From the IMG/VR virus record IMGVR_UViG_3300023202_000034, positions 8,965 to 72,964 of that record: DNA of 64,000 nucleotides; one strand, 5' to 3'. Position 1 is the first letter of the stretch, and every line of letters starts with the position of its first letter. The notes under the pieces are model-generated. The model saw nothing but the letters and a program-made list of their open reading frames with translations. It did not search any database and was not told the DNA's origin. The stretch is from a virus. Both the position numbers and the translations under genes were made by a program. Positions 34,241 through 63,999 of this stretch are shown piece by piece.

Positions 34241-34582
34241 TTAGCGGCTGAACAAGCTCATGTCTGATTTCTCAACAGAATCTGTTTGAGAATTGGGCAG
34301 AGGCTCGCTTGCTGCTTCTTCCGCGTCAGATTGTTCTGTTTCGTCAGCTTCAGTTGCTTTAACTTCGTCTGTATTAACGGTTTTGGGCTCAACAACCGCG
34401 TCGTCAGCACAGCTGGCAACGAAGCCTGGTGTACCTTCGGCGCATTCAACTTCGGCACTAAGGCCTGAGTCTTTGCGGCCCATGGTGAACGAGATGTTAC
34501 TCACCGGTCGGGCAACACCCTGACTGGCCAGAAACATGGCGATGGCTTCTTCAATGTCTTTTTGCTTAAGACGGATTTCCAT
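34241..34582 (-). CDS. Conserved N4-like hypothetical protein
   Basis: MEIRLKQKDIEEAI..FTMGRKDSGLSAEV, ends SLFSR; follows the resolvase. Confidence 0.7.
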   Translation of the reverse strand: MEIRLKQKDIEEAIAMFLASQGVARPVSNISFTMGRKDSGLSAEVECAEGTPGFVASCADDAVVEPKTVNTDEVKATEADETEQSDAEEAASEPLPNSQTDSVEKSDMSLFSR

Positions 34583-35186
34583 AAACGAGGTCTCTCATTT
34601 TGTCTGCGTTAACAGGGGTGGCTTGAATAAAGGGGAGGATGTTCAGGAATTCAGTGGTCTGAAGTCCTGCCTCAATAGCACCGATGGCATCAGCCATGTG
34701 CTCGGCCTTGGAGGCACTGACGGAGGTAACCCCGTTTCGTGTCACCATTGGCCAGTTAGCGTTGGGATGGAGCTTCACAGCTCGATCAATGATTTCGGCT
34801 TTGGAGGCAGTCTTACTGCCCACCGTGGCCAGTTTGACTTCAGTCGGGGTCACCTCAAAGAACTGAATACCCTGGGCACGTAAGGCACCCAGGACACCGA
34901 CACAGATGCCATAGGAAGCCATGGCTCTGGCAGACTGGCTACCCACCGGGACTTCCACGAAAACACACTGTACGTCTTGAGAAGCCAGTGCAGCCTTGAA
35001 GGCCAACTGTCTTGCTCGCTCCAGATCTTTACTGTTTTGCCTGACCGTTTTACCGGTGGCGAAATCAGGATTGATCAGATCCAGGGTGTGTACCGTCAGC
35101 TTCTTGGTTTCGGTGTCATAGTGGCCTTTGGCCAGTCCCCAATTGTTCAGGGACGGGTCGAAACCACAGACGGTTATTAAGCTCAT
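34566..35186 (-). CDS. RuvC-like Holliday junction resolvase (206 aa)
   Basis: GFDPSLNNWG, FVEVPVGSQSARAM, EHMADAIGA; start ATG 35186 with GGAG RBS, ATGA overlap with the HNH stop. Confidence 0.85.
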   Translation of the reverse strand: MSLITVCGFDPSLNNWGLAKGHYDTETKKLTVHTLDLINPDFATGKTVRQNSKDLERARQLAFKAALASQDVQCVFVEVPVGSQSARAMASYGICVGVLGALRAQGIQFFEVTPTEVKLATVGSKTASKAEIIDRAVKLHPNANWPMVTRNGVTSVSASKAEHMADAIGAIEAGLQTTEFLNILPFIQATPVNADKMRDLVYGNPS

Positions 35187-35737
35187 ACGGTACTCCAGGT
35201 TCTTCCGGACTTGATCGCACTTATTGCGGCATCTGTCACACCAAATTTGTCTGCAAACGCTCGACCCATACCACGCTTCCAATGGGGTAAGGCTGATTTA
35301 ATTTCAGCAACCTGGATTTGGGTTAGTGTTGCTTTTGCGATCGCTTCACCACGTGCTTGAGTACCGTGGTTGCAACGATCTTCAGCGTTCGATTTGACAG
35401 TATCCCAGCGAAGATTTCCTGGAGTATTGTTTTGTGCCTTACCATCGTTATGACATGCCTGAGCATCAGGAAAAGGACGTTGACCTTTGAAAGCCAGCAA
35501 TACCAATACGTGTACCGGTACCCACTTTGGTGATTCACCATCGGGCGCTACTGCAGCACGTAGGTACTTCTTACCTTTACTATTACTCAAGTTGAGCATG
35601 TGAGGTTCCGTACTTAAGCCTCCCCGACCATTACGGCTTTTGTATGATCGGATGCGTCCAAGAGAAGACGCCTCATACCCAGTAAAGCCAGGTATAGGGC
35701 GCCACTCTTCCATCCCTAATACAGAGATCAGACTCAT
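35183..35737 (-). CDS. NUMOD4-HNH homing endonuclease
   Basis: EEWRPIPGFTGYEASSLGRIRS (NUMOD4), VHVLVLLAF..CHNDGKAQNNTPGNLRW (HNH), C-terminal HTH. Confidence 0.9.
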   Translation of the reverse strand: MSLISVLGMEEWRPIPGFTGYEASSLGRIRSYKSRNGRGGLSTEPHMLNLSNSKGKKYLRAAVAPDGESPKWVPVHVLVLLAFKGQRPFPDAQACHNDGKAQNNTPGNLRWDTVKSNAEDRCNHGTQARGEAIAKATLTQIQVAEIKSALPHWKRGMGRAFADKFGVTDAAISAIKSGRTWSTV

Positions 35738-35994
35738 GACAGTTTACCGCTCTGCGGGTTGCCAACTGTGTTTGGCGGGATTTCCAGGTACCCTTCTTCA
35801 AAGGCCTTCTTGGGAGACCAGGAATGGTACTCATCCGACGTGCCTTTGTAATAAATCACATGGTAACCGTCAGCCGAGGAGTCGACTTTCCCGGGTAACG
35901 GGAAGGGACGTACATTGGCTACAAAGTCCCCCAATGTCATGGGCTCTGCGTGAACCTGTTTGATTGACTGGTAGCGTTTCAGATTGCCGCTCAT
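35734..35994 (-). CDS. Conserved hypothetical phage protein
   Basis: KQVHAEPMT..GYHVIY..SWSPKKAFEEGY. Confidence 0.7.
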   Translation of the reverse strand: MSGNLKRYQSIKQVHAEPMTLGDFVANVRPFPLPGKVDSSADGYHVIYYKGTSDEYHSWSPKKAFEEGYLEIPPNTVGNPQSGKLS

Positions 35995-36326
35995 ACGATT
36001 GGTTTCTCCCCATTCAGTTGAGCGTACAGTCTATACCCTTCCAGCTCCCACAGTCGCTTGCTGACCTGTTCCCGGGCATTACGCTCAGCAATCGTCCGTC
36101 CCAGCTCTGCATCAAAGTTTTCTGGTGATACACAGGCACTGTGACCGGTTGCCAGGTAAAACTTCTGATCCAGATAGGCATGACAGAACGTGCTAGTCGT
36201 TCCGGCAGGCTGAGAAAAGAAAAAAGATACACGACTCATCATGGTAAAGATGTGGTCTACCGTAACCCGGGGAGCAGTCAGACCCTTGTCCTGAATCTCC
36301 TGCTCTACTGCTTGATCGTTCGACAT
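35991..36326 (-). CDS. Phage Gp49/Gp66-family protein
   Basis: LTAPRVT..GHSACVSPENFDAELGR..LWELEGY. Confidence 0.85.
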   Translation of the reverse strand: MSNDQAVEQEIQDKGLTAPRVTVDHIFTMMSRVSFFFSQPAGTTSTFCHAYLDQKFYLATGHSACVSPENFDAELGRTIAERNAREQVSKRLWELEGYRLYAQLNGEKPIV

Positions 36327-36384
36327 CGGGTTTCCTCAGTCGGTGAATGTCAGGGGCTGATATCAGCCCCCGTGGATTCAGAGA

Positions 36385-37146
36385 TTACTGAGCAAACAGA
36401 CTGGTTGGCTGCGCCTTATTGGCCGTGGCCGCAGCTGCCATTGGGGCACCTGCTTTGGGTGCGCCGGCGGTGCCTGAAACACCTTTGGAACGATCACGAA
36501 CTTGACCGGCCCACTTCTGTTCCCAGGTGTTGTAGAACACGGCTTCTGTAGCGCCACCCTGTATTTCCATAACAGTCTTCTTGTCATGGTCTTCCAGTGC
36601 ACAGAAGAACTTATCGATCTCGTTCTTCTCGATGGTTTCGCCCGTTGCGTGATACTCACCGTCAGTACCCTTCTGGGACTTGTCTTCAATCTGCTTGAAG
36701 ATAGCGACGTACACTTCTTTGCCCAGCAGATCCATCAGCATATCCACAGAAGTAGGTACTTCTGCTTTGGCTTCTGGGCTGTAGAGATTGATGGTTTTCT
36801 TCTCAGTGTCCATCGCGGCAATTTCCTGGCCGGTGGTCAGCTGGCACAGGCTGTTGGCCAGGTTGAAGCCAGGCAGATACTGCTTGTCACCGTTCTTGTC
36901 GATGAAGAAGTTCTTATTGCCTTTGGCATCACCGGAAGCCATCCACAAGGTTTGGCGGACTTCACGACCGGCGCTGGTCATCAGGTGCAGTTTCAGGCCC
37001 AGGGCGCCACCAGCAGACTTCTGCAGGTAAGCCAGGGTAATGGTGGTCTTGTAGATCGCGGTATCCAGTGGGCTAAAGTCACCGCCTACAACGTCCTTTT
37101 CGCCTTGAATTTCATCAGAGGTAGTCAGGTTAGAGAGAAGGCTCAT
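36385..37146 (-). CDS. Single-stranded DNA-binding protein (N4 gp45-like)
   Basis: KNGDKQYLPGF..NEIDKFF, C-terminal SLFA; synteny. Confidence 0.85.
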   Translation of the reverse strand: MSLLSNLTTSDEIQGEKDVVGGDFSPLDTAIYKTTITLAYLQKSAGGALGLKLHLMTSAGREVRQTLWMASGDAKGNKNFFIDKNGDKQYLPGFNLANSLCQLTTGQEIAAMDTEKKTINLYSPEAKAEVPTSVDMLMDLLGKEVYVAIFKQIEDKSQKGTDGEYHATGETIEKNEIDKFFCALEDHDKKTVMEIQGGATEAVFYNTWEQKWAGQVRDRSKGVSGTAGAPKAGAPMAAAATANKAQPTSLFAQ

Positions 37147-37205
37147 AATGATATTCCTTTGGTTTCAATGATTTCGGGTTTTGGTTTTGTGAGTGGTGCC
37201 GGGGG

Positions 37206-37568
37206 TTACCCGGCTACCTTGTCGACACGTTGCTGAGCATGAGAATCGGTGTAGCTCAGGGAGTGGTAACGCTTCGACAGTTTGGTGATGTTAGCTTCCA
37301 GGGTTTCTTCCCGGGTAATACCGAGGCGGGACCGCAATCCTTCCATGTAGAATTCCAGGTCACCCAGTTCCTCAATGACGTTGTCACGATCCAATGGCTT
37401 GCGATAGATCACGGCTTTCTTGACCGCATCCAGCAATTCACCGGATTCGCCGGCAATGCCTACCGCCATGTGGAGGTTGTGGGCGTCGTCACCGGTCAGT
37501 TCCCGGGCAATGGTGTCACCGTATTTGGCCAGGGCTTGAACCAATTCAGGATGGGTAATCTGGGTCAT
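37206..37568 (-). CDS. MazG-like nucleotide pyrophosphohydrolase
   Basis: GIAGESGELLDAVKK..EELGDLEFY..NITKLSKRY. Confidence 0.85.
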   Translation of the reverse strand: MTQITHPELVQALAKYGDTIARELTGDDAHNLHMAVGIAGESGELLDAVKKAVIYRKPLDRDNVIEELGDLEFYMEGLRSRLGITREETLEANITKLSKRYHSLSYTDSHAQQRVDKVAG

Positions 37569-38311
37569 GCTGCGGCTTCCTCGTCGTAGTACTCATGCAA
37601 GCGGTTCAGTACCAGCTGGCAGTCGTTGTTGATGAAGGTTTCCTTGGTATCCCACAGGCCCAGTGGTCCACGGAGCCGTTCGTTGACGGTCTCTTTGGTG
37701 AGTCGGGTCTGGAATACGTACTTGATACCCAGGTTCTCTTCTTCTGGCGTATACGTCAGGAGGGAGTTCTGGTAGTCCTTCAGATCCTTGATCTTGACCT
37801 TCTTGGCGGCAATGATGCAGGAGAAGTAACTCTCGATGCCGTTGTTTTTGAGCGAACCTTGCACCGGTACTTTGGTCTCCATGACCATATCTTTATCGTT
37901 CAGGGTGGCCAGGGTGTGCGCTGTGAAGATCACGTTCTTGGTAGACCTGGCTACATGCTGCTGCATCAGGCGCTTGAAGAATTGAGCGAAGTCGCCCCAG
38001 GCCTTACGCCCATCGGCAGACGGTGCCACATACAGAGACACATACATGTCCAGCATGTAGGTCAGAGAATCCACCACAATGGTGTGGATCTCCGGCATGG
38101 TTTCTGCAACCTGGAAGGCCTCTTCAATCTGGTGCGGATCGGTGATCACGTACTTCTTAAATTTGCTACGAAAAGGTAGCTTCTTTCCGGATTCGGTGTT
38201 GAGGTACATCACACCTTCGGGGTCTTTGAGTCCCATAAGAGACGTAGACTTACCCGCAGATGATTCACCACACACCAGAACCAGGTTGTCATTGACTTGG
38301 TTTTGGGACAT
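37565..38311 (-). CDS. AAA ATPase (N4 gp44/Sak4-like)
   Basis: GESSAGKS Walker A, IVVDS Walker B. Confidence 0.85.
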   Translation of the reverse strand: MSQNQVNDNLVLVCGESSAGKSTSLMGLKDPEGVMYLNTESGKKLPFRSKFKKYVITDPHQIEEAFQVAETMPEIHTIVVDSLTYMLDMYVSLYVAPSADGRKAWGDFAQFFKRLMQQHVARSTKNVIFTAHTLATLNDKDMVMETKVPVQGSLKNNGIESYFSCIIAAKKVKIKDLKDYQNSLLTYTPEEENLGIKYVFQTRLTKETVNERLRGPLGLWDTKETFINNDCQLVLNRLHEYYDEEAAA

Positions 38312-38382
38312 ATATCCTCCGAGGATATGAGTGAAAGGGGTTGAGGCCTGTAGACGGTAAACCCGTACAGGTAAGGGTCCGG

Positions 38383-38838
38383 CTAATTGTCAAACCAGAA
38401 CACAACACGCTGGCGGTCAGGGTCCCCGTCGAGGCCTTGAATAATGTCCTGCAGATAACCGGCCAAGGCTTGTGCGTGCTCTTCGCTGCTGATCAACAGT
38501 TCAGCTGCTTTGTTGAGCAGTTCACGCTTGGTCAGATGGTTTGGTGAGTGAGCATCACCTTCCCAGCGTCGATAAAGCCGGTCAGTGTGATCTGATGCGT
38601 CATCAGGCCAGCCTTTGATCTCGAAAGAGAAAGGCCATTCTGTGCGTACACCCGGATGCAGTAAGCCAAACAGCCAGTAGTTCCGGCCGTCATGTTGGGC
38701 TTGGTCCATATCAAACCAGCCCTCTTCATCAGGGTCTTCTGGATCGTCCTTCTCAACAGTAAAGGTGTCTGCTGCGTCGGCAATCCAATGGTCGTTCTCG
38801 TCCAGCGTTTCGCTGTACATGTGAATGTCACAGCCCAT
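38383..38838 (-). CDS. Conserved hypothetical protein (MGCDIH...)
   Basis: MGCDIH..RNYWLFGLL..RVVFWFDN. Confidence 0.7.
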   Translation of the reverse strand: MGCDIHMYSETLDENDHWIADAADTFTVEKDDPEDPDEEGWFDMDQAQHDGRNYWLFGLLHPGVRTEWPFSFEIKGWPDDASDHTDRLYRRWEGDAHSPNHLTKRELLNKAAELLISSEEHAQALAGYLQDIIQGLDGDPDRQRVVFWFDN

Positions 38839-38894
38839 GAGTTTTCCTTTTGGTGGATTCATGAAGGGGCCGAAGGCCCCCTCACGAACTGGGT

Positions 38895-41057
38895 TTATGC
38901 TGCGCGTTTAGCCAGGGCTTTACCCACGGTCACCATGATGGTGCCAATGATTTCAGCCTCGTCCAGCTTGTCAGCCAGCTTGTCGTTCAGATCCATGACA
39001 CGTCGCTGGATCTCTGAGTAGTCCTGTCCGCCGTCTACCAGGATCATGGCAAAGCGCATCAACTGGTTGTTGCGGTTACCGTCACCGGTGGTGTTGATCA
39101 CCCAACGCTCGAGATTGTCCAGAGACTGTTGATCCTGAATCTGACGCTTGCGCTCTTCGTTCTTGCTGGTTTTCGGAATGAACGGCAGGACGTCCAGTAG
39201 CTCACCTTCGCTGTACTCGTAGTGACCTGCATGAGACAGCCACTTACGGGCGCGTTGGCCTACTTGTGAATCCACTTCAAACGGAAGCCATTCAAAGATG
39301 TTCTTCATGAACTCCTTGAAGTCTTTCGCGTCCAGCTTCAGCTCGTAGTTGGTGGGAATGATGATCCGGAAGCGGTCTTCACCGTTTTCGCCGTGACGTT
39401 TTGTGGTGTAGATCATGTACTTCAGATCTTTCAGGACTGTCCGAACCAGAGCCAGGGAAGTTCCGTGGTCCACGTCTACAACAATCAGATTGAACCCGGG
39501 CAAGCAGTTGTCTTCCTGACGGTGCCCACCGGTGACGTGGTGGTTAATCCAGTGCAATCCCTGGCTTTGCGTCAGGATGTGCAGCTTGTCCCAGGGCGCA
39601 TACTCGTTCTTGTAGCCTTGGGCAATGTCCGTGGAGTAGCTCACCGTCAGCTTGTTGAGGTCCGTTGAATCCAGAGTCTCACCCCGGAGGAACTCAATGC
39701 TGCTGTCAAACCGCTTCTTGATGATGATGTTGTTCTTGTAACCCCAGGCAATGGCCAGGTTCAGGAGATCCCGTTGCTGGTTTCCTGCTTTGGGGTAGAA
39801 CGCCAGATCCTCTACCAGATCGGCTTGTGTCACTTCATCCCGGTTGTTGGCCATGTACTTGGCCAGTTTCACGTAGGAACGGTCACGGTTCTGGATACGA
39901 CTGAAAGCTTCACCGGATTCTTCGGCTGAGCGGATAGCGGCCTTGTAATGTTCAGGCAGAATTTCCGGACTCTCGTCGATGAAGGCGTAAGCACCGGCCA
40001 GTTTCATGGCCTTGAAGAATCGTTGACGCATCTCTGAGCGTGCCAGGTCCTGATGCAGTGGCAAGTGGTGAGCTCGAAGAGCACAGTCGTTCTCGTACTG
40101 GTAGTACAGCAGGGCGGTTTCGTCCGGTACGATCAGTTGCTTGTGCGCATTGATCATGTTGGACAGTTTGCCCAGATGCTTGGCAGCTTCCGCCAGAGAG
40201 GTGTCCTGTTCCATGCTCTTGGCTTTGGCGACTTTTTCAGCTGGGGAGAGCAGGTCGGGATCTTCCATCACAACGTCGTCATTGACGAAGCCAAAGAAGC
40301 AGCGACGTGCGTAACCCATACCCAACAAGTTGTTGAACACTTCTTCAGTACGGCCACCATCGAGCAGGCCTTGAGGCACACCAAACAACATCATGTTGGT
40401 TGGGGTAATGCCCTGGATTTCTTCGTTCCGGATCGACTCTGTGGTGTTTTTCACCAACTTCTGTTTCACCTTCCCGTCAAACAGTTCCAGGAACAATCCC
40501 ATAATGTCGATGTTGCCAATCAGGTTGGCGCCAATTTCATCCACCTGGAAGTTCATGGCACCACCGTTGGCCATCAGCAGCATGTTGCGTTGCTGTTTAA
40601 TCGCCGGTGCAGTACCCGAGTCAAAGCTGAACAGCATCGTGCCGTGGCTTTCAAACTCACGACGTACCCGCTCGGCTTCTTCGTCCGGGTCCTTGTTCTT
40701 ACGTGCCGCACGTTCCAAAGCCAGCTTGGGGATGTTCATTTCCGCCAGCAGTGGCATGGTCTGGTTGACGAACATGGTGCGGAACTGGTGGATGACCTCG
40801 TCTTCAATAATGGCGGTGGAGTGTCCTTTACCAAAACCAGAAGGTGCCAGGTTGATCATGAATGCGTTGACCGGCTGAGGGGCTTTACCCTCTTGCTTGA
40901 TCATGGTGCGCATCATGGAGGCCACGATGGTCAGGTAGTAGTTCACATGGTTTCGGAAGAAGGAAGTTTCCTTGGTTCCGATTCGGTTACAGATGCTGGT
41001 CACCAACCGTTCTGCGAACGGGAAGTGATCCAGGTTGTCGTAGTCAATCTCGCTCAT
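38895..41057 (-). CDS. DNA primase/replication protein (N4 gp43-like)
   Basis: APSGFGKG, VVDVDHG, YTTKRH, GNRNNQL (PriCT-like). Confidence 0.88.
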   Translation of the reverse strand: MSEIDYDNLDHFPFAERLVTSICNRIGTKETSFFRNHVNYYLTIVASMMRTMIKQEGKAPQPVNAFMINLAPSGFGKGHSTAIIEDEVIHQFRTMFVNQTMPLLAEMNIPKLALERAARKNKDPDEEAERVRREFESHGTMLFSFDSGTAPAIKQQRNMLLMANGGAMNFQVDEIGANLIGNIDIMGLFLELFDGKVKQKLVKNTTESIRNEEIQGITPTNMMLFGVPQGLLDGGRTEEVFNNLLGMGYARRCFFGFVNDDVVMEDPDLLSPAEKVAKAKSMEQDTSLAEAAKHLGKLSNMINAHKQLIVPDETALLYYQYENDCALRAHHLPLHQDLARSEMRQRFFKAMKLAGAYAFIDESPEILPEHYKAAIRSAEESGEAFSRIQNRDRSYVKLAKYMANNRDEVTQADLVEDLAFYPKAGNQQRDLLNLAIAWGYKNNIIIKKRFDSSIEFLRGETLDSTDLNKLTVSYSTDIAQGYKNEYAPWDKLHILTQSQGLHWINHHVTGGHRQEDNCLPGFNLIVVDVDHGTSLALVRTVLKDLKYMIYTTKRHGENGEDRFRIIIPTNYELKLDAKDFKEFMKNIFEWLPFEVDSQVGQRARKWLSHAGHYEYSEGELLDVLPFIPKTSKNEERKRQIQDQQSLDNLERWVINTTGDGNRNNQLMRFAMILVDGGQDYSEIQRRVMDLNDKLADKLDEAEIIGTIMVTVGKALAKRAA

Positions 41058-41068
41058 AACAGCTCCGG

Positions 41069-42046: not shown

Positions 42047-42086
42047 GGGTTAAGTCCTTGAATGAAATACACGGGGTAATATCCCG

Positions 42087-42772: not shown

Positions 42773-42809
42773 GGTTTACCTGTATATATCGAGCAGGGGA
42801 GTTGCTTAT

Positions 42810-47095: not shown

Positions 47096-47523
47096 TTAGT
47101 CTACAAGTGCCGACCAAGAGACTGGATAAAGTGGTCTGATAATCTCATCCCATTGTTTAGCCAGGTCTTGGATTTCTTTTTGGGCATGAGCATCACTGCG
47201 TTGAATATACGCGTTGGCCCAGGCATAGAGTGAGCCGGTTACCCAGTAGGTTGTAAGCATGGATTGAGGCAGAACCATCCTGGCCTGTTCGGGGGCAATG
47301 CCGCGATTGATCATCTGGGTATAGAGCAGGCGAGCGTCTTCAACGAAGTTCTCATACTCGGACTTCCAGTACCCCTGTTGAGTGTCGGAGACACCTCCAC
47401 CACTACCTTGCTTAATGCCACCGACTGGACGGGCACGCCAGACTTCCGGCTCGTGAAACTCCGGCGTATCATCCACATAGCGACGACTTATCTCGTTATA
47501 GGTGAAACCAACCATGTGTTTGA
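47096..47523 (-). CDS. thyX: Flavin-dependent thymidylate synthase, exon 2
   Basis: (F)KHMVGFTYNEISRRY, APEQARMVLPQ, HAQKEI. Confidence 0.9.
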
Positions 47524-48345
47524 CTTTATCTTCGATGGGGAGCGTTAATCCCCACCCGTTCTCTTATGAACTGCTGCATGTTTCCATGCAGAAGAGACTA
47601 TATCATCACCCTATTTCTAGGGGCTGGGCGCTTCCACCAGACTTCTGGTGTACTTCCTCACGGAATAGTCGTTGAACCTTCTCTGCAAGTTCTACAGAGC
47701 TTGGCTGCTGATTGCCCTCGTCTTTCTCGTTAGGGGTTTCCAGCAATTCACCCAGTTCTTCCTCTATGAATTGCTTCATAGGGCGGCTTAAGCTGTATTC
47801 GCCTTTAGCTTGATCAAACTCAATAAGACCCATTTTGACCAACGACATAGACAGTGTTTCAAGCTGTGCATGTACGTTTCGGTGGTGGGCCATATTGTCA
47901 CAGAGGTACAGATTTGTTGGTCTGAAGTCCTCTTTGTCACCGTTTACATGATGTACCTTTTCCTGTTTGGTAACTAATCGACCAATAAGATCGCTCATTA
48001 CCAGACGATGGACAGGCATGTATCCATGGTTTGTGTTGGTTTTACCTACCCACACCATCGGGTAACCGTCTGAGTGCGTATAGATATTGCCAATGTTCTT
48101 GGGCTGTTGTTTGTACCCTTTATTCCAGGGTGTCTTTCCCAAGTTGGTCAGTTTGTTGCTACAACGGTAACAACGGTGAACGTCTTTTTTATAAGCGTTC
48201 CAGTAACTGACACGTTTTTCATCACCACAGTCATCACATATACGGGTAACTTGATCGCCGGCTCTATCTTTCAACATACTACTTTTCCTTTGTTTGTTGC
48301 TTGATAAATGAGCCTAGCATAGCTATCGACAAATAACAGAAGTTT
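47524..48345 (-). ncRNA. Group I intron (822 nt) in thyX, carrying an HNH ORF
   Basis: Exon ends CGG-U and intron ends G; core GTTCAACGACTA and ATGATATAGTCT; splicing restores ARQR-F-KH. Confidence 0.9.
47606..48277 (-). CDS. Intron-encoded zinc-finger HNH endonuclease
   Basis: CDDC..CYRC, VHRLVM..VHHVNGDKEDFRPTNL. Confidence 0.85.
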   Translation of the reverse strand: MLKDRAGDQVTRICDDCGDEKRVSYWNAYKKDVHRCYRCSNKLTNLGKTPWNKGYKQQPKNIGNIYTHSDGYPMVWVGKTNTNHGYMPVHRLVMSDLIGRLVTKQEKVHHVNGDKEDFRPTNLYLCDNMAHHRNVHAQLETLSMSLVKMGLIEFDQAKGEYSLSRPMKQFIEEELGELLETPNEKDEGNQQPSSVELAEKVQRLFREEVHQKSGGSAQPLEIG

Positions 48346-48664
48346 ACCGTTGCCTGGCTACAAAGATCGGGACGGTTTCCCGCATGGAGATCATGGCGTG
48401 AGAGAACGGTGTCCAATGAGTGGGCATGTTCTTGGCCCACTTGAGCGTGGCTTCAATTTCTTCACAGGCATACGGATTTTCTGTCTGGTCTTTAAGGCGA
48501 TCAATTGCATTGTCCCAATCGGACTTCATACATCCACGGGCCAGGAATTGAATTAAGCCATAATCCTTTTCAGTCAATTCTTTGGATACAGCGTTGAAGG
48601 AGACCCTTGCGGCGTTCGTGACTGTTAAATCCGACCCCATATGGTCTAAGTACTCAGCTAACAT
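48346..48664 (-). CDS. thyX: Flavin-dependent thymidylate synthase, exon 1 (spliced product 248 aa)
   Basis: DHMGSDL..NAARVSF, HWTPFSH, PIFVARQ. Confidence 0.9.
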
Positions 48665-49190
48665 AATACAATCCTCTTACTACTTTGTTGATAACAGTAC
48701 GGGATACTCCATACTGTTCAGTGAGTTGTTTGGTAAATCCTCTAGGTGCTCTCTTACCGTTTAGTGAGGCGTAGGCGGCTTTAATTTCCTGGACTTGCGC
48801 AAGAGATAATTTGGCGTTACGGGGTGTTATCCCTTGAGCAGCTCGGGCCTTTTGGGCTGCTTGCTTACGGGAAAGTGGACACTTATCCATCTGGTTTTGT
48901 GAACTACTTCCAAGAAGGATATTGTCCTTGCTGAAATCGAGAGTGTCCCCATTCCTGTGACGCACTTGTATATTTTCTACAAATGCAGCTTCACCATAAA
49001 ACTGGTATGCAGCAAACTGGTGTATAGGAATGCCATAAACCATCCCTCCCCAGTTAGTAGAGAACGTGGGGTACCGTTGTTTACCATGGCAACCAATTTT
49101 CAAAGGACCTTTTGGACCGATGAGTTGGTTCCCCTCTACACGATATCCTCGGGCTACAGCTTCTACGATGCGTTGTTGTGTTTTCGTCAT
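48654..49190 (-). CDS. Free-standing HNH homing endonuclease
   Basis: IHQFAAYQF..VRHRNGDTLDFSKDNI; C-terminal HTH; GGAG RBS. Confidence 0.85.
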   Translation of the reverse strand: MTKTQQRIVEAVARGYRVEGNQLIGPKGPLKIGCHGKQRYPTFSTNWGGMVYGIPIHQFAAYQFYGEAAFVENIQVRHRNGDTLDFSKDNILLGSSSQNQMDKCPLSRKQAAQKARAAQGITPRNAKLSLAQVQEIKAAYASLNGKRAPRGFTKQLTEQYGVSRTVINKVVRGLYYVS

Positions 49191-49241: not shown

Positions 49242-49310
49242 CTAAATTATTATGGCTGCGTTCACGGTTGTAAGGTCTGATCCCATATGATCGAGGTATT
49301 CAGCAAGCAT
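49242..49310 (-). pseudogene. thyX: Relict original 5' end of thyX (22 codons)
   Basis: MLAEYLDHMGSDLTTVNAAIII* matches the thyX N-terminus at 17 of the first 19 aa. Confidence 0.88.
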
Positions 49311-54633: not shown

Positions 54634-54638
54634 TCGTT

Positions 54639-55214: not shown

Positions 55215-55223
55215 GGAGGCACT

Positions 55224-57633: not shown

Positions 57634-57666
57634 GCTGCTTTGGATTTATTGGCTTCGGTTTTCCAC

Positions 57667-58333: not shown

Positions 58334-58338
58334 GGTAT

Positions 58339-58596
58339 CTATCTCAGGGTAACGCCCAACAATAGGGCATGGGTGAGTAATTCAGGACGCAAGAACGAGT
58401 GCTCTTTTTGTGGAATCTCACAGAACATCTGTGATTTTCCATTGTAGAACGGCTCCAGTTCAAACAAGGTACCTCGGACGGTGTCCAGGCATTGGGTGCC
58501 GAGAGGAAACAGATTGTCACAGAGGTAGGGAGCGTATTCGGAAGCTATAGGCTCAGGGCTGTCTGGTTTGTAGTACCAATACCGGGGCTCAGTCAT
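58339..58596 (-). CDS. Hypothetical protein (MTEPRYW...)
   Basis: Internal ATG with AAGGA RBS. Confidence 0.55.
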   Translation of the reverse strand: MTEPRYWYYKPDSPEPIASEYAPYLCDNLFPLGTQCLDTVRGTLFELEPFYNGKSQMFCEIPQKEHSFLRPELLTHALLLGVTLR

Positions 58597-58777
58597 GGGT
58601 ACGTCCTTGGTTCTTTTGATAGGAAGACGCCAGACAGTCCCGTACAAACTCTTGATGCATGAGACGGTGGTGCTCCCAGGCGTACTCTTCGCGCTCTGGA
58701 GAACCTTTAGGGTAGGGGTTTTCATCTGACGAAAGTCCATTACGCCAGTCTTCCCTGGCTTGTGCAATAGGAGTCAT
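58589..58777 (-). CDS. Hypothetical protein (MTPIAQAR...)
   Basis: GGAG RBS; ENPYPKGSPERE motif. Confidence 0.55.
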   Translation of the reverse strand: MTPIAQAREDWRNGLSSDENPYPKGSPEREEYAWEHHRLMHQEFVRDCLASSYQKNQGRTHD

Positions 58778-58843
58778 GGCAAATCTCCAAAATAAGGGTG
58801 GGGCCCCGGCCCATGGCAAAACCAGAGCCCCGAAACTGAAAGG

Positions 58844-59167
58844 TTATTGCTTACGGCGATCAAACAAAGGGAAGTATTTGCAGAGGTTAGCTTCTACTTC
58901 TTGTAATGCACGTCCACCGATGTGGGCTGCAACAGCAATGGCTACCGGTAAGGTAAACCATTTAGGTACATCGTCCACAATGTATGGATAGGTCGAGAAC
59001 ATAAGGTAGCCACAAAGAATGGCTGTCATGAACTCAGAGACTACCCATAACAGGGATGCTTGTTGTCCGTTTAACACTCTGCGACTGATGGAAACAATGC
59101 CACTAATGGTACTGACAATGAGTGCACCTAAGAGGTCCCAGAAATCCGGAGGAATAGTTTTCGGCAT
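58844..59167 (-). CDS. Holin-like membrane protein (LydA-type)
   Basis: Three TM segments; SEFMTAILCGYL, AAHIGGR. Confidence 0.65.
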   Translation of the reverse strand: MPKTIPPDFWDLLGALIVSTISGIVSISRRVLNGQQASLLWVVSEFMTAILCGYLMFSTYPYIVDDVPKWFTLPVAIAVAAHIGGRALQEVEANLCKYFPLFDRRKQ

Positions 59168-59234
59168 AGTCGCTCCAAGTACAGCATAAGATTGTCCACA
59201 TTGTAATGCAGCGACATCTACACTGCTTAATTAT

Positions 59235-59456
59235 TTACAGAAACTTGGGACGATTATACTTTTGCATATTGGCTTTGATTATCCGATCCAGTTTACCTGC
59301 AATCGTAGTAGCCAATACTCGTGAAGTAGTAAAGCGATTACCAGGAAGAGCATATTTATAACCCTTACTTGTTCTAACTGCTATTACTTCACCATACCCA
59401 ACAATAACGTTATGGGTAAGTTCAATACTTTGTTTCTGAGGGATTGCAACAGTCAT
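59235..59456 (-). CDS. Hypothetical protein
   Basis: 73 aa, VIVGYGEV..YALPGN. Confidence 0.55.
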   Translation of the reverse strand: MTVAIPQKQSIELTHNVIVGYGEVIAVRTSKGYKYALPGNRFTTSRVLATTIAGKLDRIIKANMQKYNRPKFL

Positions 59457-59584
59457 AAAGATATTATCCAGTTAATTAAATTTGACTGGATAATATACAA
59501 CGAGAAAGATTTATAAAAGAGGTTTATAAATCTTTTTCAAGTTTACTTATTGCAGCAGCCACTTCTACTTCATACTGTTTTAAT

Positions 59585-60037
59585 TCAGCCAGTACTTGTT
59601 GAAGCCGCTGCTGTTCCTGCTGCAGGTTCTTCAGAGTCATTTGTGAGGGACAAAGTGACACGTCGGACACCTTCGGCGTTCTCTTTTGTGAGAGTAACGG
59701 TAACAGTGCTTCCGTCAGCCACAATATCATCCCCACTTTCGAGGTCGGAGAAACAACGAGCGATGAGACGATCAAAGCCGTCTTCATAAGCCTCTTCGGT
59801 AGACTGCTGGGCAGCGTCGATTTTGGCATTGATACGCGCAAAGTGGTCACCAATCTGTTCCAGTTCTTTGGCCAGGATTCGGTCTGCAGTGAACAGGTGA
59901 TTCATAGCTTCGCCAATCTCAAGTTGGGGATAGCGAGCAGAAGCAGTGTCCATGAGTTCAAACAGGTCACGGTTTTTCTTCTGGATGCCTTTTACGACTT
60001 CGGAAACTTCTTTAAGGTGTTGCAATTGTTCAATCAA
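59585..60037 (-). CDS. Hypothetical protein
   Basis: 150 aa, coupled to the upstream HTH gene. Confidence 0.6.
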   Translation of the reverse strand: MIEQLQHLKEVSEVVKGIQKKNRDLFELMDTASARYPQLEIGEAMNHLFTADRILAKELEQIGDHFARINAKIDAAQQSTEEAYEDGFDRLIARCFSDLESGDDIVADGSTVTVTLTKENAEGVRRVTLSLTNDSEEPAAGTAAASTSTG

Positions 60038-60243
60038 AGTAACGGTTCCAGTTGTTCAGCAGTTGGGTTAAACCCACAGTAGTAGGCGAGCTTAATGAAC
60101 ACCCGCAGGGATGGCCTGCCCGGAGGACAGGTCCGCCACTTCCAGATAGTGGAGGGTGATATTTCTGTGGATTCAACAATGTCTGAAAAGCAGTCAGACT
60201 TCAGGCGTGCATGGACCGCCAAAATCAGGTCACTTAAGGTCAT
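60034..60243 (-). CDS. Cro/XRE-like HTH regulator
   Basis: FSDIVESTEISPSTIWKW..PSLRVFIKLA. Confidence 0.65.
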   Translation of the reverse strand: MTLSDLILAVHARLKSDCFSDIVESTEISPSTIWKWRTCPPGRPSLRVFIKLAYYCGFNPTAEQLEPLL

Positions 60244-60305
60244 GGAGATCCTCTTGAAAAGAAACGGGATCAGGGGTACGGAGTACCCCTAATCAGGTGA
60301 AGCTA

Positions 60306-61082
60306 TCAGGCAATACCCAAACGTTCGTTCAGTCGGCTACGGGCAATGGCCGGCAGCTGAATCACACGCTCAGGGTCTGCCAGGTGAGCAGGCAGGTAGT
60401 CGACCAATTCCGGCCAGGCATCACGAATCTGCTTGGTGGTGTTGAACTGGTTCAGATAATCCACAATTTCACTACGTACCTTGGCTTTTTCTTCTTCCCA
60501 CAGACGTTGTGCACGCTGTGCCTTGGAATACTCAACGTAGTCCTTGTCATCTCGGGGAATGGTGAGGGTGTGGTTGAAACCACTGCCCGGGAACTCGGCC
60601 ATTTCAATGTACTTGGCTTGGTCTCGTGCACGTACACCCACCGTTACCAGGTTTTCCCAGGTCTCGATGTTGTAGTAGGTATCGGATTTGCCGGTGTACG
60701 GGATACCCAGCTTGTTTGCAATCTCTACTGGAAGATCAAAGGACATTGTCGCGCCTTTGTCACCGTTCTCCAGCACAACCTGGAGGTTAAAGGAGCCGGC
60801 AGAGCGAACGTGAATCAGTGCACGGTTATCGTCCGTCAAGTGCTCCAGTGCGGTATTCACCGACTTGGTTCGTTCGATCAGATGCTTGAAGGCTTTCTGC
60901 TCGGCCGGTGCGTTCTTGCGAACTTTCATCAGACGCGGCAGCAGGGCCATGATGAATTCGGCAAAGGTACCATTGGCTGGTGCAGGGTTGGCTTCTTCCC
61001 ATTGCTTCATGACTGCGTTGGCAATGTCAGAGCGGTGAGCTTGGGTCAGACGGAGTGATCGGGGTTCTTTGGTTTGGGTCAT
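60306..61082 (-). CDS. Nmad5-like protein
   Basis: RLTQAHRSDIAN..YLNQFNTTKQIRDAWPELVDYLP. Confidence 0.65.
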   Translation of the reverse strand: MTQTKEPRSLRLTQAHRSDIANAVMKQWEEANPAPANGTFAEFIMALLPRLMKVRKNAPAEQKAFKHLIERTKSVNTALEHLTDDNRALIHVRSAGSFNLQVVLENGDKGATMSFDLPVEIANKLGIPYTGKSDTYYNIETWENLVTVGVRARDQAKYIEMAEFPGSGFNHTLTIPRDDKDYVEYSKAQRAQRLWEEEKAKVRSEIVDYLNQFNTTKQIRDAWPELVDYLPAHLADPERVIQLPAIARSRLNERLGIA

Positions 61083-61084
61083 GG

Positions 61085-61327
61085 TTAGTGCCTTGTAGAA
61101 AGGTATTCGCGTTTGATACGAGACGCATCAGTTGCAGTGAGTTTTTGCTCAAGCCAGGGAGCGGGATACCCCTTACGGTCAAGAACAGTGAATTCAAATT
61201 CTTCAGGTTCAGGTGGTTCAGCATCCCCAAAGCCAGAGCCAGTCACTCGCATGGGTCGGTCTTCGGAGTAGTACGTGACTTCGATCTGGCAGGGGATACC
61301 GGCCACCCGGGATTCAAACGTATCCAT
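61085..61327 (-). CDS. Conserved hypothetical phage protein
   Basis: RVAGIPCQIEV..VLDRKGYPAPWLEQKLT. Confidence 0.7.
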   Translation of the reverse strand: MDTFESRVAGIPCQIEVTYYSEDRPMRVTGSGFGDAEPPEPEEFEFTVLDRKGYPAPWLEQKLTATDASRIKREYLSTRH

Positions 61328-61348
61328 AGGTGACCTTCTTGGTTTGGT

Positions 61349-61855
61349 TTACGAAAGCGCGGGGAGGCCGGAGGCCTCCTGTAAATAAATGAGTTTGTCC
61401 TTGCGGCACACGTAATTGCCGGTGCGTTTAAGAAGATCTACTCCGGTCATATCGTCGTGATCTTCCTCGTAGAAGATTCCGGCCAGTCCCAAGCCGTGAA
61501 TAGCTTTAGCACATTCAAAGCAGGGTGCTCGGGAGACAAACAGGATAGAGCCCTGAGTAGACACACCTTCTCGCGTCATCTTGTCGATGGCATTGCGTTC
61601 TGCGTGTATAACTTCTGGATTGGTTTTAGGCCTCTGTTGTGTCACACCAGGAGATACTTCGTCCCACACAAGAGTGGACTCACAGCAGTTGTCCATACCG
61701 CTGGGCATGCCGTTGAAACCGATAGACAACATTCCAGATGCTGTGACCACAACCGCGCCTACTTTATGACGTGTAGCTACGCTTTGGTTTGCGGCCGCCT
61801 CTACAACCTGCCAGTACATCGGAAAATACTTCGGCTTATGCGGATTAATGGCCAT
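61349..61855 (-). CDS. dCMP deaminase
   Basis: KVGAVVV..GFNG..HAERNA..PCFEC. Confidence 0.9.
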   Translation of the reverse strand: MAINPHKPKYFPMYWQVVEAAANQSVATRHKVGAVVVTASGMLSIGFNGMPSGMDNCCESTLVWDEVSPGVTQQRPKTNPEVIHAERNAIDKMTREGVSTQGSILFVSRAPCFECAKAIHGLGLAGIFYEEDHDDMTGVDLLKRTGNYVCRKDKLIYLQEASGLPALS

Positions 61856-61945
61856 GACGGGAAGTGAACTTCAACTGTGGGTTTGACTGAATGAATGCTT
61901 GTCGAGCTTTATACGCTTCCGGTTGCGAGAATATGGTGTAGTTAC

Positions 61946-62779
61946 TCATGCTGCTTCCTTTTCTTCAGTTAGCTTGGTCAGGTGGGTTTTACACTCCTGC
62001 ATGATGTCTGTTTGAGTGCAGTTGTTCTTCAGTCCCATGGGGTGTGCCCAGTCCGGGTAGAAGATATCCAGCTCAGCTCCGATTTTTACCGTGTCATGTT
62101 GGATTTCTGGCAGCTCTTGCCATTGCATGGATTTGATCAGCTCCTGGTTTACCCACTCAACAATGTCCAGCTTGTTTCGGATCAGCAGGTAGATTGCATC
62201 GTGGATCATGGCCACGGGTTTGATATCCAGTTTGTAGGGCGAGGCCCAGACCTTTTCCATGAATTCGTTCAATGCTCGGTTGGTCAGCAAGCCATAAGAC
62301 TGTCCCAAAGCGTTACCCGCGGTACGCCCTTCAGCTTTCGCCTCATAGGGCGTACTTCGATGATTGCGCAAGGTAGAAGATAACAGTGGGGTTCTGACAC
62401 GCAGCCCAAAGGCTACAGTCACATACCCGTCAATGGCAGCTTGATCCAGCTTGGCTTGTACCCATTCATCACTCACCTTGTAAAGTTCGTGATAGTTGGT
62501 TTCAATACGTTCCGCCTCATCTTCCGGGAAACCCAGGTTGTTCATCAGAGTGAACTTGGTGCCCTGATAGGTCAGAGCAAACGTCGGGTTCTTTGAGCGG
62601 CTACGAATTGGGTCCAGGTCTGGGTCCTTCTTCATGGCGTGACTCAGTTCCGGGGTGATTTCCTCGTAAGGAAATAACTCAGGCCAGTAACTGAAAGCCC
62701 GCAAACCATGACCATCGAAGCCCGGAGTGTTCGGAAGCTGATCAATGTTGACGTTGTCTTCAGAGTTGATTTTGAGCAT
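61946..62779 (-). CDS. DNA polymerase (family A), C-terminal chain
   Basis: FDGHGLRA, motif B RSRSKNPTFALTYQG, motif C IHDAIY; own GGAG RBS. Confidence 0.9.
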   Translation of the reverse strand: MLKINSEDNVNIDQLPNTPGFDGHGLRAFSYWPELFPYEEITPELSHAMKKDPDLDPIRSRSKNPTFALTYQGTKFTLMNNLGFPEDEAERIETNYHELYKVSDEWVQAKLDQAAIDGYVTVAFGLRVRTPLLSSTLRNHRSTPYEAKAEGRTAGNALGQSYGLLTNRALNEFMEKVWASPYKLDIKPVAMIHDAIYLLIRNKLDIVEWVNQELIKSMQWQELPEIQHDTVKIGAELDIFYPDWAHPMGLKNNCTQTDIMQECKTHLTKLTEEKEAA

Positions 62780-63299
62780 TGATCTTCTCCAAATTGCTTA
62801 ATGCAGTCCTGCGACGTTTCCGACTCACCTCTGCCTTCCACTCATCGGAGAGTCCGTCCTTTTCAGCTTGGATTCGTAACATACGGTTCAAGGTGTTTGG
62901 GTGGTTCCCTACTTCAGTGGCTAAATCTGACACAAGTTCTCCGTCTAAAGCGCGCCTCAACATAGCCCTCTTCACATCGACATGGACAAACCCTTTACGT
63001 AGACCAGATTCCAATGCGTGTTGGGCAGTGTGTTCAGCCGTACACCACTCAAGATTGCTCCAATGGTTGTGGAGCTTATTCCCATCTTTGTGGTTCACCT
63101 GAGGGTGGTTATAGGGATTTGGGAGGAAATGAGTAGCGACCAGGCGGTGAACACTGCACTGGTCACCGTCTAATGTGACGATCAAGTAACCGTTATTGTT
63201 TTTCCGTGGGAGTAACTCCCTGTCCGTGTAACCGGAGTGGATGCTTCCATCCTCAGCTACTCGGTACATCTCGTGGTGTGCGATGGGTAAGTTTTTCAT
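62760..63299 (-). CDS. HNH homing endonuclease splitting the DNA polymerase gene
   Basis: VHRLVATHFLPNP..VNHKDGNKLHNHWSNLEW; C-terminal HTH; AGGAG RBS before ATG 63299. Confidence 0.9.
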   Translation of the reverse strand: MKNLPIAHHEMYRVAEDGSIHSGYTDRELLPRKNNNGYLIVTLDGDQCSVHRLVATHFLPNPYNHPQVNHKDGNKLHNHWSNLEWCTAEHTAQHALESGLRKGFVHVDVKRAMLRRALDGELVSDLATEVGNHPNTLNRMLRIQAEKDGLSDEWKAEVSRKRRRTALSNLEKINAQNQL

Positions 63300-63999
63300 A
63301 AAGGACATCTCCTGTTATTTGCTCACCATCATATTCTACAATAGTGTCACCTAAGATTGTTTGGGTTTTTCCGTTAATGGTTACTTCGTACTGCCGATCC
63401 CCTGAGTACACTCTGAGCTTATTGGGGTCTTTGGTGGTGAGCGCACTGATGTAGTCTTCCAATGAGTTGAAATCCGCACCGGCAAACAGCCATCCGTCTG
63501 GCGCCTGAAAGCAGTACTTGATCAGCTTGCCGTAGGTGGAGCCGGCTGGCATGTTCTGCAGGTTTGGATTGGAACTACTCAAACGACCAGAGACAGTGCC
63601 TCCCAGATTGAATGAACCGTGCAGGTAAACAACACCATCACCTTTGTCGATGGCTTGCTCAAATGCCGGGATAAACGTTGAGAGAATCTTCTCGGCTTTT
63701 GCCCAGGCACAAAGTGCTGAGAGTACATCTATGTAGTCCTGGTTTTTGGTGTGGTTTAACAACTTCTTGATGGTTTTACCACCCGTCGCTGGTTGCTTGG
63801 TGTCCGTGAGATCGATGACCGGTAGCTGCATGTCTTCATACAGCAGTTTCTGCAGTTGGGGCCCTGAGTTGGGGTTGAACACCATACGTTTATTTACACG
63901 GTATTCATTCCAATCTTTGGGCAGAATCTTGTCCGGATTCTTGGCTTTACCTTTGCGGTCAGCGTAGTCTTTCTTCCAAGCCAGTAGAGTTAATCGGTC
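63253..63999 (-). CDS. DNA polymerase (family A), N-terminal chain; continues beyond the window
   Basis: FNPNSGPQL, GTVSGRLSSSNPNLQN, motif A GADFNSLE; frame open to the window edge. Confidence 0.92.
   Translation of the reverse strand, partial: DRLTLLAWKKDYADRKGKAKNPDKILPKDWNEYRVNKRMVFNPNSGPQLQKLLYEDMQLPVIDLTDTKQPATGGKTIKKLLNHTKNQDYIDVLSALCAWAKAEKILSTFIPAFEQAIDKGDGVVYLHGSFNLGGTVSGRLSSSNPNLQNMPAGSTYGKLIKYCFQAPDGWLFAGADFNSLEDYISALTTKDPNKLRVYSGDRQYEVTINGKTQTILGDTIVEYDGEQITGDVLYEKLTHRTPRDVPSS

Follow-up and report, generated by a model that had tools for sequence, protein, structure and literature searches.

How can an essential phage gene stay functional when a homing endonuclease gene is inserted in it? 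The question is raised by the 64,000-base window analysed here, which is part of the 72,964-bp IMG/VR virus record IMGVR_UViG_3300023202_000034 (estimated completeness 98%). The window encodes a virion RNA polymerase-like open reading frame (ORF) of 3,633 amino acids (aa), and its replication genes resemble those of N4-like phages (Schitoviridae), with a best nucleotide identity of ~67%. HNH endonuclease genes accompany a RuvC-like resolvase gene, thyX and a family A DNA polymerase gene, all of them on the minus strand. An earlier note had proposed that three unrelated HNH genes interrupt these three genes without splicing, each supplying the downstream part with a ribosome-binding site, a start codon and a replacement N-terminus, and had seen in this a newly recognised, general 'third way' of being harmless. 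What the note observed is confirmed in part, and its interpretation finds partial support. The best explanation, to which we give a probability of roughly 0.7, is that all three are free-standing HNH homing cassettes, of which two left 5' scars before intact genes and one split its gene, providing the two pieces with a tail and a head.

The three HNH ORFs lie where the earlier note had placed them, the third with an alternative upstream start:

35183..35737, minus strand: HNH1, free-standing endonuclease with NUMOD4 and HNH_3 (Pfam)
48654..49190, minus strand: HNH2, free-standing HNH_3 endonuclease (Pfam) with its own Shine-Dalgarno sequence (SD), GGAG
62760..63308, minus strand: HNH3, HNH_3 endonuclease (Pfam), likely starting at the second ATG at 63299

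They are not unrelated, being distant members of one Pfam family with pairwise identities of 22–35%. HNH2 and HNH3 score 29.2 and 29.8 bits against HNH_3 (cut-off 24.8 bits); HNH1 reaches 21 bits, below the cut-off, and carries NUMOD4 at 1.1e-9. The three restart strings read exactly as quoted in the note, and each carries the translation start of the downstream host part: GGAG-taccgt-ATG in HNH1 (SD 35196-35193, ATG 35186-35184, overlapping the HNH1 stop as ATGA), GAGG-attgtatt-ATG in HNH2 (SD 48676-48673, ATG 48664-48662) and GGAG-aagatca-ATG in HNH3 (SD 62790-62787, ATG 62779-62777). HNH3 and the two polymerase pieces occupy three different frames. Among relatives, all three HNH lineages show a sporadic presence at a fixed position beside a conserved gene, and they are probably three lineages, each tied to one target gene across unrelated phages. 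The G+C content of the cassettes is slightly below that of the adjoining host parts (0.483 vs 0.532, 0.438 vs 0.480 and 0.475 vs 0.49–0.51).

Rfam was run at curated thresholds over the whole window, in a permissive mode (E<=10) over the three cassettes, and at E<=0.1 over other cassettes of the tail-bearing type described below. At curated thresholds there are two group I introns in the window (47574-47835 and 1912-2172), neither of them at the three cassettes. The permissive mode gave no match around HNH2 or HNH3 (for HNH3 over 62600-63500), and around HNH1 no intron match, just four unrelated chance matches (E 0.84–7.8). Pfam detected no intein or Hint family in the ORFs flanking the cassettes. 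The claim that no group I core or intein motif surrounds the HNH genes stands for the cassettes as such, but a fourth HNH gene, ~370 nt downstream of HNH2, lies within a group I intron of thyX. The three cassettes look splicing-free, and the polymerase pieces would be translated separately.

Judged by alignment, only the polymerase gene is truly split among the three loci, and it shows no duplication of host sequence. Its parts are:

63406..63999, minus strand: polymerase N piece, host part, ending ...KDPNKLRVY by alignment; the gene continues off the window at G000:C1:2-1453
63253..63405, minus strand: cassette-encoded 50-aa tail on the N piece, with stop codon; no homology to uninterrupted polymerases
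62729..62790, minus strand: SD GGAG, ATG and 17-aa head MLKINSEDNVNIDQLPN, class I by alignment of PolC-like proteins
61946..62728, minus strand: polymerase C piece, host part from TPGFDGH, with motifs B and C; the piece aligns from its residue 18

Aligned with three uninterrupted N4-like polymerases, the N piece reaches up to ...KLRVY(S), and its alignment ends at the very residue where that of the C piece begins (residue 627 in PB119); no host residues are lost at the junction. The insert (62729-63405, 677 nt) has only ~94 + 31 nt outside the HNH ORF. It falls between DFNSLED and RSRSKNPTFALTYQG, which we take to be motifs A and B of the family A polymerase. Comparison loci are numbered below with an L and come from IMG/VR or phage records; L079 is phage Pylas, L080 is phage Pollock, and L091 is the window's own record outside the window (G000:C1). 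The halves abut, uninterrupted at this site, in 20 of 23 related IMG/VR polymerase loci; among the other three, L026 is consistent with abutting halves, L013 is interrupted elsewhere and L025 is without the N part. The 19 uninterrupted junctions that were printed read ...VY/[TEIL]xG[FY]DGH, where the slash marks the site. There is no second polymerase match in the whole 72,964-bp record, and the remaining N piece lies at the other contig end. PB119 residues 438–478 match both ends of the record (window 63880-64000 and L091 2-120), so these ends seem to overlap by ~120 nt, either as a terminal repeat or through a circular assembly cut within the polymerase gene.

The polymerase cassette is widespread. 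HNH3 is 45–47% identical (tblastn) to HNH genes in the polymerase of Klebsiella phage Pylas and of E. coli phages (Pollock, PMBT57, VEc25, SP5M and others), and 63–64% identical to the polymerase HNH of L092. The same cassette, with the same site, tail and head, occurs in Pollock, Pylas, L092 and L093-95. In the Pollock annotation, two DNA polymerase coding sequences (CDS) overlap the HNH gene, one at each end. A derivation of the head as a degenerate copy of the host stretch NSLEDYISALTTKDPN, with which BLAST partly aligned it, was considered and rejected: Pollock-type heads show no likeness to that stretch, and the window 'KINS' is the conserved C-terminal ...AKINS of the Pollock and Pylas HNH proteins in another frame.

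Over their first 31 codons the five tails (window, L092, L093, Pollock and Pylas) can be aligned gap-free, with ratios of non-synonymous to synonymous substitution rates (dN/dS) of 0.07–0.28 (dS being saturated), and stops are abundant in the other two frames; this pattern indicates purifying selection on the tail. A four-tail profile run against 1.84 billion proteins gave 52 matches at E<=1e-3, of which 31 fit the site-1 pattern (a polymerase N piece ending ...KDPNKLKVY followed by the tail), while several more are variants of the pattern or tail-only fragments. All of the first 15 proteins fetched have the tail: 13 on a site-1 polymerase fragment, P0051 at a second site and P0009 fused to HNH sequence. 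In P0009 (90 aa), which has no polymerase part, the tail runs directly into the C-terminal end of an HNH3-like protein (...KRKLTALKNLEAINVGD); it looks like a cassette that kept the tail after most of the endonuclease was deleted. Ten long matches were set aside as noise, the five of them checked by Pfam being repeat proteins (PKD, beta-helix, InlB repeats) or a kinase. The first tail residue in the 31 proteins varies (T in 9, M in 7, A, S, V and Q in 3 each, L in 2 and I in 1) and is never Cys.

Heads are conserved as well. A search with the C piece returned 1885 PolC-like proteins of 152–485 aa, and among the 120 of these that were listed, 45 have a class I head, the window type (MLEIKSTDxVSIxQVEN/T), and 22 a class II head, the Pollock type (MQQFGTLKKST...SIKKxGx/T), the slash marking the end of the head. 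Comparison of 29 class I sequences shows no variation at M1, D8, Q14 or N17. Thr directly follows the head in 65 of 67 proteins, and uninterrupted alleles have T, E, I or L at this position. Tails are ~45–50 aa and heads 17–29 aa long, and these cassette peptides are conserved protein sequence and not read-through. No description of a conserved tail or head in N4-like polymerases was found in a partial literature search.

Tails are also found at a second insertion site ~24 codons downstream (L013-b, P0051), together with a 45%-identical HNH gene. A profile built from the 31 site-1 tails only scored 18.5 bits for P0051 (E 8.9e-5 in 1279 sequences), 9.5 bits for L013-b (E 0.059) and 3.6 bits, which is not significant, for the second-site tail of P0040; by sequence, second-site and site-1 tails are probably homologous. 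The polymerase of L013 (600-3700) is in at least three pieces: an HNH gene within a group I-like element (37.8 bits) sits at DFNSL/EDY, between the motif A carboxylates, the tail-type cassette follows ~40 codons further on, and the last piece appears frameshifted (ORF 2888-3025 vs 3061-3660). L093-L095 have, besides the tail-type cassette, a ~700-nt insertion in the N piece (~520-1225) with sub-threshold group I matches of ~30 bits at 506-722 and 980-1175.

An AlphaFold2 model of the tail (28-row alignment) has a mean predicted local distance difference test score (pLDDT) of 82 and shows four strands and a helix, elements that recur in the model of a 248-aa N fragment. A structural search over 48,161 chains gave 10 matches at Z>=2, and seven of the nine rows shown are inteins. 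The best of these are 6riy_A and 4lx3_A (Z 3.0, root-mean-square deviation (rmsd) 2.8–3.0 over 40 residues), followed by five more at Z 2.0–2.5; all scores are far below the caution level of 8 and are taken as a lead only. The model also matches region 477-518 of 8yo3_C, the central domain of T4 topoisomerase II (VIA Z 2.0, rmsd 3.2 over 42 residues), which is the C-terminal tail of gp39 if the length of gp39 is read as 516 aa. Foldseek ranked T4 chains 4–5 (E 1.0–1.2, TMq 0.41–0.46) and gave no PDB match at E<=0.001. A PDB sequence search with the tail profile returned nothing significant (best E 0.22), and Pfam at E<=10 on six tails gave two chance matches only, DUF4940 and DUF1344. As a lead, the tail is confidently modelled as a small domain whose fold weakly resembles inteins and the tail of T4 gp39. 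When tail and head (with 15 host residues) were predicted as a complex, from alignments built for this analysis, the score was 0.35 against 0.02 for the best of three controls. Of 80 solved complexes 58 came up to the mark used, as did 2 of 110 mismatched pairs; at scores <=0.60 just 7 of the 80 did so, along with both mismatches. At least 91% of contacts were shared between runs, the partner pLDDT was at least 57, and the prediction lends weak support to tail-head binding.

At the resolvase the situation is different. The features of this locus are:

35734..35994, minus strand: upstream 86-aa gene, its stop overlapping the HNH1 start as ATGA; the homologue in L027 overlaps the resolvase start directly
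35711..35737, minus strand: nine ancestral resolvase codons (MSLISVLGM) forming the in-frame N-terminus of HNH1, by comparison with L027
35160..35196, minus strand: resolvase restart signals (SD GGAG, ATG) and nine replacement codons (MSLITVCGF)
34566..35186, minus strand: RuvC-like resolvase at full length (206 aa); residues 1–187 are 86% identical to the L027 protein

The resolvase is named from the annotation of similar DNA in phage records; Pfam assigned no family to the window protein. In the HNH-free IMG/VR locus L027 there is one resolvase start, MSLIPVLGMDPS, and the stop of an 87-aa upstream gene overlaps it. Over its first 30 nt HNH1 is identical to L027 (MSLIPVLGMD) at 23 of 30 positions (resolvase gene body 234 of 300), and the downstream resolvase copy at just 17 of 30. 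HNH1 reads MSLISVLGM and then EEWRPIPGF, while its relatives start M-x-E-x-W without such an extension. Nine ancestral resolvase codons are therefore fused in frame to HNH1, with a breakpoint that is ambiguous within the shared ATGGA. N-terminal peptides were also compared with all six frames of the window as a chance test. MSLISVLG and MSLITVCG agree in 6 of 9 residues, and an equal 6 of 9 chance match occurs elsewhere, so the duplication is convincing only because the HNH-free allele supports it. As the alignment has it, the resolvase gene is not split: the downstream gene is full length and the upstream part is a nine-codon scar.

Relatives of HNH1 (44–50% identical) lie directly upstream of a RuvC-like resolvase in HN01/HN04 (Burkholderia), JWAlpha/JWDelta (Achromobacter) and nickie, an unrelated 112-kb Pseudomonas phage, and none of these phages has a duplicated resolvase N-terminus. 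The near-identical phages HN01, with the HNH gene, and HN03, without it, amount to a natural experiment. The 530-nt insert begins at the old ATG, and the resolvase genes show 13 differences in the first 30 nt after it and 12 in the next 530 nt (DNA that is otherwise ~98% identical); the 400 nt to the left of the insert are identical at 370 positions. The two genes start MIVCGLDPSL (HN01) and MLVLGLDPSL (HN03). Because the differences crowd next to the cassette, it is concluded that the resolvase cassette carries a recoded version of the first ten codons of its target. Such a bounded tract is the expected signature of co-conversion with a cleavage-resistant allele, as for free-standing endonucleases. 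V-C-G is common to the window replacement codons and the HN01 cassette allele (MIVCGLDPS), and both HNH-free alleles have V-L-G. Among the three lineages, a co-converted altered tract is shown for that of HNH1. The replacement host sequence proposed in the note is retained for the resolvase and dropped for the polymerase.

The thyX locus also has a complete gene behind its cassette:

49242..49310, minus strand: remnant of the ancestral thyX 5' end, 19 codons and then I-I-I and stop, recognised by its match to the thyX start
48344..48676, minus strand: SD GAGG, ATG and thyX exon 1 with complete N-terminus, the start residue being shared with HNH-free relatives
47516..48343 (ends approximate), minus strand: group I intron in thyX with the fourth HNH gene (47606-48277); RF00028, 100 bits at 47574-47835
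47096..47515, minus strand: thyX exon 2 (Pfam Thy1, 3.4e-24) as the listed ORF; the exon begins a few codons upstream of 47515

The exon junction, FVARQR/FKHMVGF, was placed against the uninterrupted L029. The remnant upstream of HNH2 consists of ATG and 18 codons, MLAEYLDHMGSDLTTVNAA, followed by I-I-I-stop (a 22-codon ORF), and the thyX start that overlaps the HNH2 stop reads MLAEYLDHMGSDLTVTNAARVSF. These two N-termini share 17 of 19 residues and 40 of 57 nt; seven of the 19 codons are identical, ten differ synonymously and two non-synonymously. The duplicate is beyond chance, as it is the sole other match of at least 8 of 19 residues in the six frames of the window. A match to HNH2 is absent from the fetched flanks of the six closest thyX relatives, L028-L033 (65–75% aa identity). 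In L028, L029 and L031-L033 thyX starts at the same Met, for example MLAEYLDHMGTDLTVVNAARVSF in L032, with no second copy in the 200 nt upstream. Since the downstream thyX is complete, the upstream copy is regarded as a scar. In the phage collection a single relative of HNH2 was informative: in Curvibacter phage P26059A, a 40.5% identical gene overlaps the thyX start by 8 nt, again without a duplication. L028, which shares its IMG/VR contig with L004, carries an insertion of ~514 nt (3408-3922) in its thyX exon-2 region, at a site unlike that of the window intron.

Alignment with HNH-free alleles, which the note had put forward as a check, mapped the insertion boundaries and separated two different situations, 5' scars and a true split. 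That HNH genes interrupt essential genes holds for the polymerase; the resolvase and thyX downstream of their cassettes are full length. Duplicated host N-termini survive best at thyX and with the caution given above at the resolvase, whereas the polymerase head is not a host copy. HNH-free relatives (L027; L028, L029, L031-L033) have a single N-terminus each, and none keeps the duplication.

The following course of events would account for these features. For the resolvase and thyX, the usual place of the endonuclease gene is immediately upstream of the target. HNH1 and HNH2 would cut endonuclease-free alleles near the 5' end of the gene, and repair would copy the endonuclease together with the adjoining altered first codons of the donor's gene. 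In HN01 and JWAlpha the gene upstream of the cassette is SSB, and the window phage has a different upstream neighbour. As the upstream flank was without a homologue, repair homology would have been available on the target-gene side only, and the left junction would have formed illegitimately, inside the gene. Such a junction would leave nine resolvase codons fused to HNH1 and the 22-codon thyX remnant ORF, with intact resolvase and thyX presumably translated from the SD and ATG embedded in the 3' end of the endonuclease gene. The polymerase cassette lies between ...KLKVY and T(D/P)G(F/Y)DGH, and this enzyme would be made as two polypeptides. Tail and head may help the halves to assemble non-covalently, in analogy to the tails of Aeh1 NrdA and the bracket of T4 gp39/gp60.

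Several points weigh against this account. In the window phage the absence of splicing is deduced rather than observed, as are the cut sites of HNH1, HNH2 and HNH3, and the Rfam model may overlook divergent group I introns. The tail-head complex prediction is a weak pass, and the window tail and head are both acidic (isoelectric points 4.6 and 4.1), unlike the Pollock-type pair (4.1–4.6 vs 8.2–9.3). The resolvase N-terminal match is by itself not above chance, and the two thyX copies are about equally far from relatives (36–42 vs 36–42 of 57 nt), which gives no direct sign of which copy is foreign. The 5' duplications at the resolvase and thyX could instead have been made in place, as target duplications at insertion, with later drift of the downstream copy or its selection for escape from cutting. 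The equal distance of the thyX copies from the five relatives speaks for this, as do the shortness of the duplications (27 and 57 nt) and their position precisely at the insertion. However, the recoded 30-nt tract that separates HN01 from HN03 arrives with the cassette and without a duplication, which is the signature of co-conversion; the V-C-G shared with HN01 points the same way, and ten synonymous changes in 19 codons are much for drift in place. An origin in place is considered unlikely.

The remaining alternatives concern the polymerase. Its insert could be a self-splicing intron, group I or other, with an HNH gene, in which case one polymerase would be made and tail and head would be absent from the working enzyme. 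True group I introns with HNH genes occur in the same genome, L013 has an HNH-bearing intron 18 codons upstream in the same polymerase gene, and the depositors of Pylas joined the polymerase CDS across an 'intron' noted as such. Moreover, parts of Barth 2023 (PMC10448857) report by reverse transcription PCR that ICP1 genes fragmented by HNH-3 genes are spliced, and a guess at introns for the split DNA polymerase is made in Fouts 2013 (PMC3670811). Yet permissive Rfam, which detects group I signals at other HNH genes (37.8 bits at L013-a, 38 bits at L091 and 100 bits at thyX), found nothing at the tail-type cassettes of the window (E<=10) or of L092, L093, Pollock, Pylas and L013-b (E<=0.1). 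The little sequence outside the HNH ORF leaves scant room for an intron, the tail is selected in the frame of exon 1 and kept in at least 31 protein clusters, and a conserved in-frame ATG with SD precedes the conserved head. With the Rfam result, the selection on the tail and the head start taken together, an intron appears quite improbable. A very small split intein, whose halves would be the tail and head and which would ligate the polymerase by protein trans-splicing, is suggested by the order of N piece with tail, endonuclease, and head with C piece, which mirrors the 'fractured genes' in passages of Dassa 2009 (PMC2677866). Heads end N/T in 47 of 67 cases and N/S in one more, Thr comes next in 65 of 67 and N17 is invariant in class I; inteins make up seven of the nine fold matches shown (Z 2.0–3.0), and two of the three top PDB sequence matches look like mini-inteins, judged by their names and lengths (E 0.47 and 0.61). 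Against this, tail and head add up to just 67–73 aa, and we know of no working intein smaller than about 125–135 aa. The first tail residue is variable and never Cys, class II heads have Q, K, S or R at their last position as frequently as N, and the window tail is without the His of the HHI motif. Pfam gave no Hint or intein family, no intein was present among the checked proteins of the 52 tail-profile matches (five of the ten long ones by Pfam, the short ones being polymerase fragments), and all Z values are far below 8. Protein trans-splicing is therefore regarded as very improbable.

The preferred reading, free-standing cassettes with separately translated pieces, has precedents. The nrdA-a/mobE/nrdA-b arrangement of phage Aeh1 was reportedly described by Friedrich in 2007 as 'genes in pieces'. 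There too an HNH gene splits an essential gene at a conserved site and overlaps the downstream piece, the pieces are separately translated, and the tails are absent from unsplit homologues. According to passages of Crona 2011 (PMC3045599), tails resulting from the mobE insertion are essential, and they are proposed as a general way to neutralise gene fragmentation; the same passages raise an origin from a degenerate intein, point to T4 gp39/gp60, and expect such tails to vary and to be hard to detect by similarity. The present case differs in having a family A DNA polymerase as host and tail and head families that are conserved in many phages, probably at two sites. Furthermore, the Aeh1 tails are oppositely charged, unlike the acidic pair of the window, and the polymerase case is known from sequence alone.

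A second parallel is T4 gene 39/mobA/gene 60, where an upstream tail and a downstream head, also totalling ~70 aa, flank the mobA (HNH) locus; parts of a 2024 paper (PMC11461880) describe this ~70-aa TOPRIM insertion of gp39/gp60 as an assembly bracket beside mobA. The similarity is not reflected in sequence: the tail hidden Markov model (HMM) scored 6.7 bits against gp39 (E 0.43 in a 1281-sequence set, not significant), the head HMMs gave no alignment to gp60 (they are weak profiles, with Pollock's own head at just 6.6 bits), and the T4 mobA region matched none of the five HNH proteins. The T4 endonuclease is defective, and translational bypass, a T4 feature, is absent from the window polymerase. 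Intronless homing by the seg and mob genes of T4 is similar in its promoter-less cassettes beside conserved genes, in co-conversion of flanks, and in free-standing endonucleases that carry downstream-gene expression signals, those of an essential gene lying inside the endonuclease ORF, as covered in sections of a review (PMC2988022). The T4 cleavage sites given there are hundreds to thousands of bp away, whereas here the altered tract abuts the cassette, and the window cassettes, situated 9 and 19 codons into the gene, left the old 5' end behind as a fused or free remnant.

In N4-like vibriophages JA1/VchO139-I, HNH genes split the DNA polymerase and two other genes, as passages of Fouts 2013 (PMC3670811) state. 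The split polymerase of N4-like phages is the nearest case, a family A enzyme interrupted by an HNH gene with the same site, tail and head in Pollock and Pylas, although the window phage is a distant lineage (~67% nucleotide identity in the polymerase at best) with a class I head. The three-ORF layout of Dassa 2009 (PMC2677866) has, in the sections concerned, true split inteins; phage replication enzymes are the hosts there as well, and expression signals are brought with the endonuclease, but the window polymerase is without recognisable intein blocks or an N-terminal nucleophile, and its inserted peptides are half the size. The 'third way' is not new, as Crona 2011, the T4 gp39/gp60 work, the review of intronless homing and Fouts 2013 describe it. 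What is added here is the widespread N4-like polymerase case with its conserved tail and head families, the bounded recoded resolvase tract and the two 5' scars.

These observations can be joined in a more speculative reading, in which tail, HNH gene and head form a portable module. The endonuclease would travel with the halves of a ~70-aa split 'bracket' domain, splitting the enzyme at different places (the two polymerase sites) and yet leaving it assembled, and the bracket would be a shrunken split-intein relic (one Hint lobe and a closing strand ending Asn-Thr) related to the gp39/gp60 TOPRIM insertion that accompanies mobA. We consider this possible but doubtful. With Aeh1 NrdA and T4 topoisomerase II as the other two, the polymerase would make a third natural example, far more populous than either, of an essential enzyme that works after a homing endonuclease split its gene. 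The tail and head families comprise hundreds of natural variants, and as the cassette is also present in cultured E. coli phages, Pollock among them, split-protein reassembly can be tested; if tail and head act as a clasp, they are possible natural split-protein tags. The two 5' scars would illustrate how the entry of a free-standing endonuclease turns out where the recipient genome has no homologue of one flank. In annotation, polymerases of this kind are best called two genes with extensions, and neither pseudogenes nor presumed intron-containing genes.

Other insertions were seen in the record and in related phages. In Pylas (4354-5793) a second HNH gene lies directly upstream of thymidylate synthase; it is absent in Pollock (4366-5375). 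The gene upstream of it has 101 aa, compared with 125 aa in Pollock, and a different C-terminus, and from this comparison the HNH gene looks like an intergenic insertion that replaced the 3' end of its neighbour. The group I intron at 1912-2172 (minus strand, RF00028, 62.9 bits) begins where a T7-like RNA polymerase ORF (2140-3237, minus strand; Pfam RNA_pol 6.8e-12) ends. As this ORF stops just after ...VVCIHDES, the intron appears to interrupt the catalytic motif, and an open frame at 1679-1873 is the likely second exon. Outside the window, at 6997-7771 of L091 (G000:C1, minus strand), a sub-threshold group I match (38 bits, E 3.9e-6) spans a fifth HNH_3 gene (7118-7603), located between an AAA ATPase ORF (7959-8807) and the ORF at 6066-6893.

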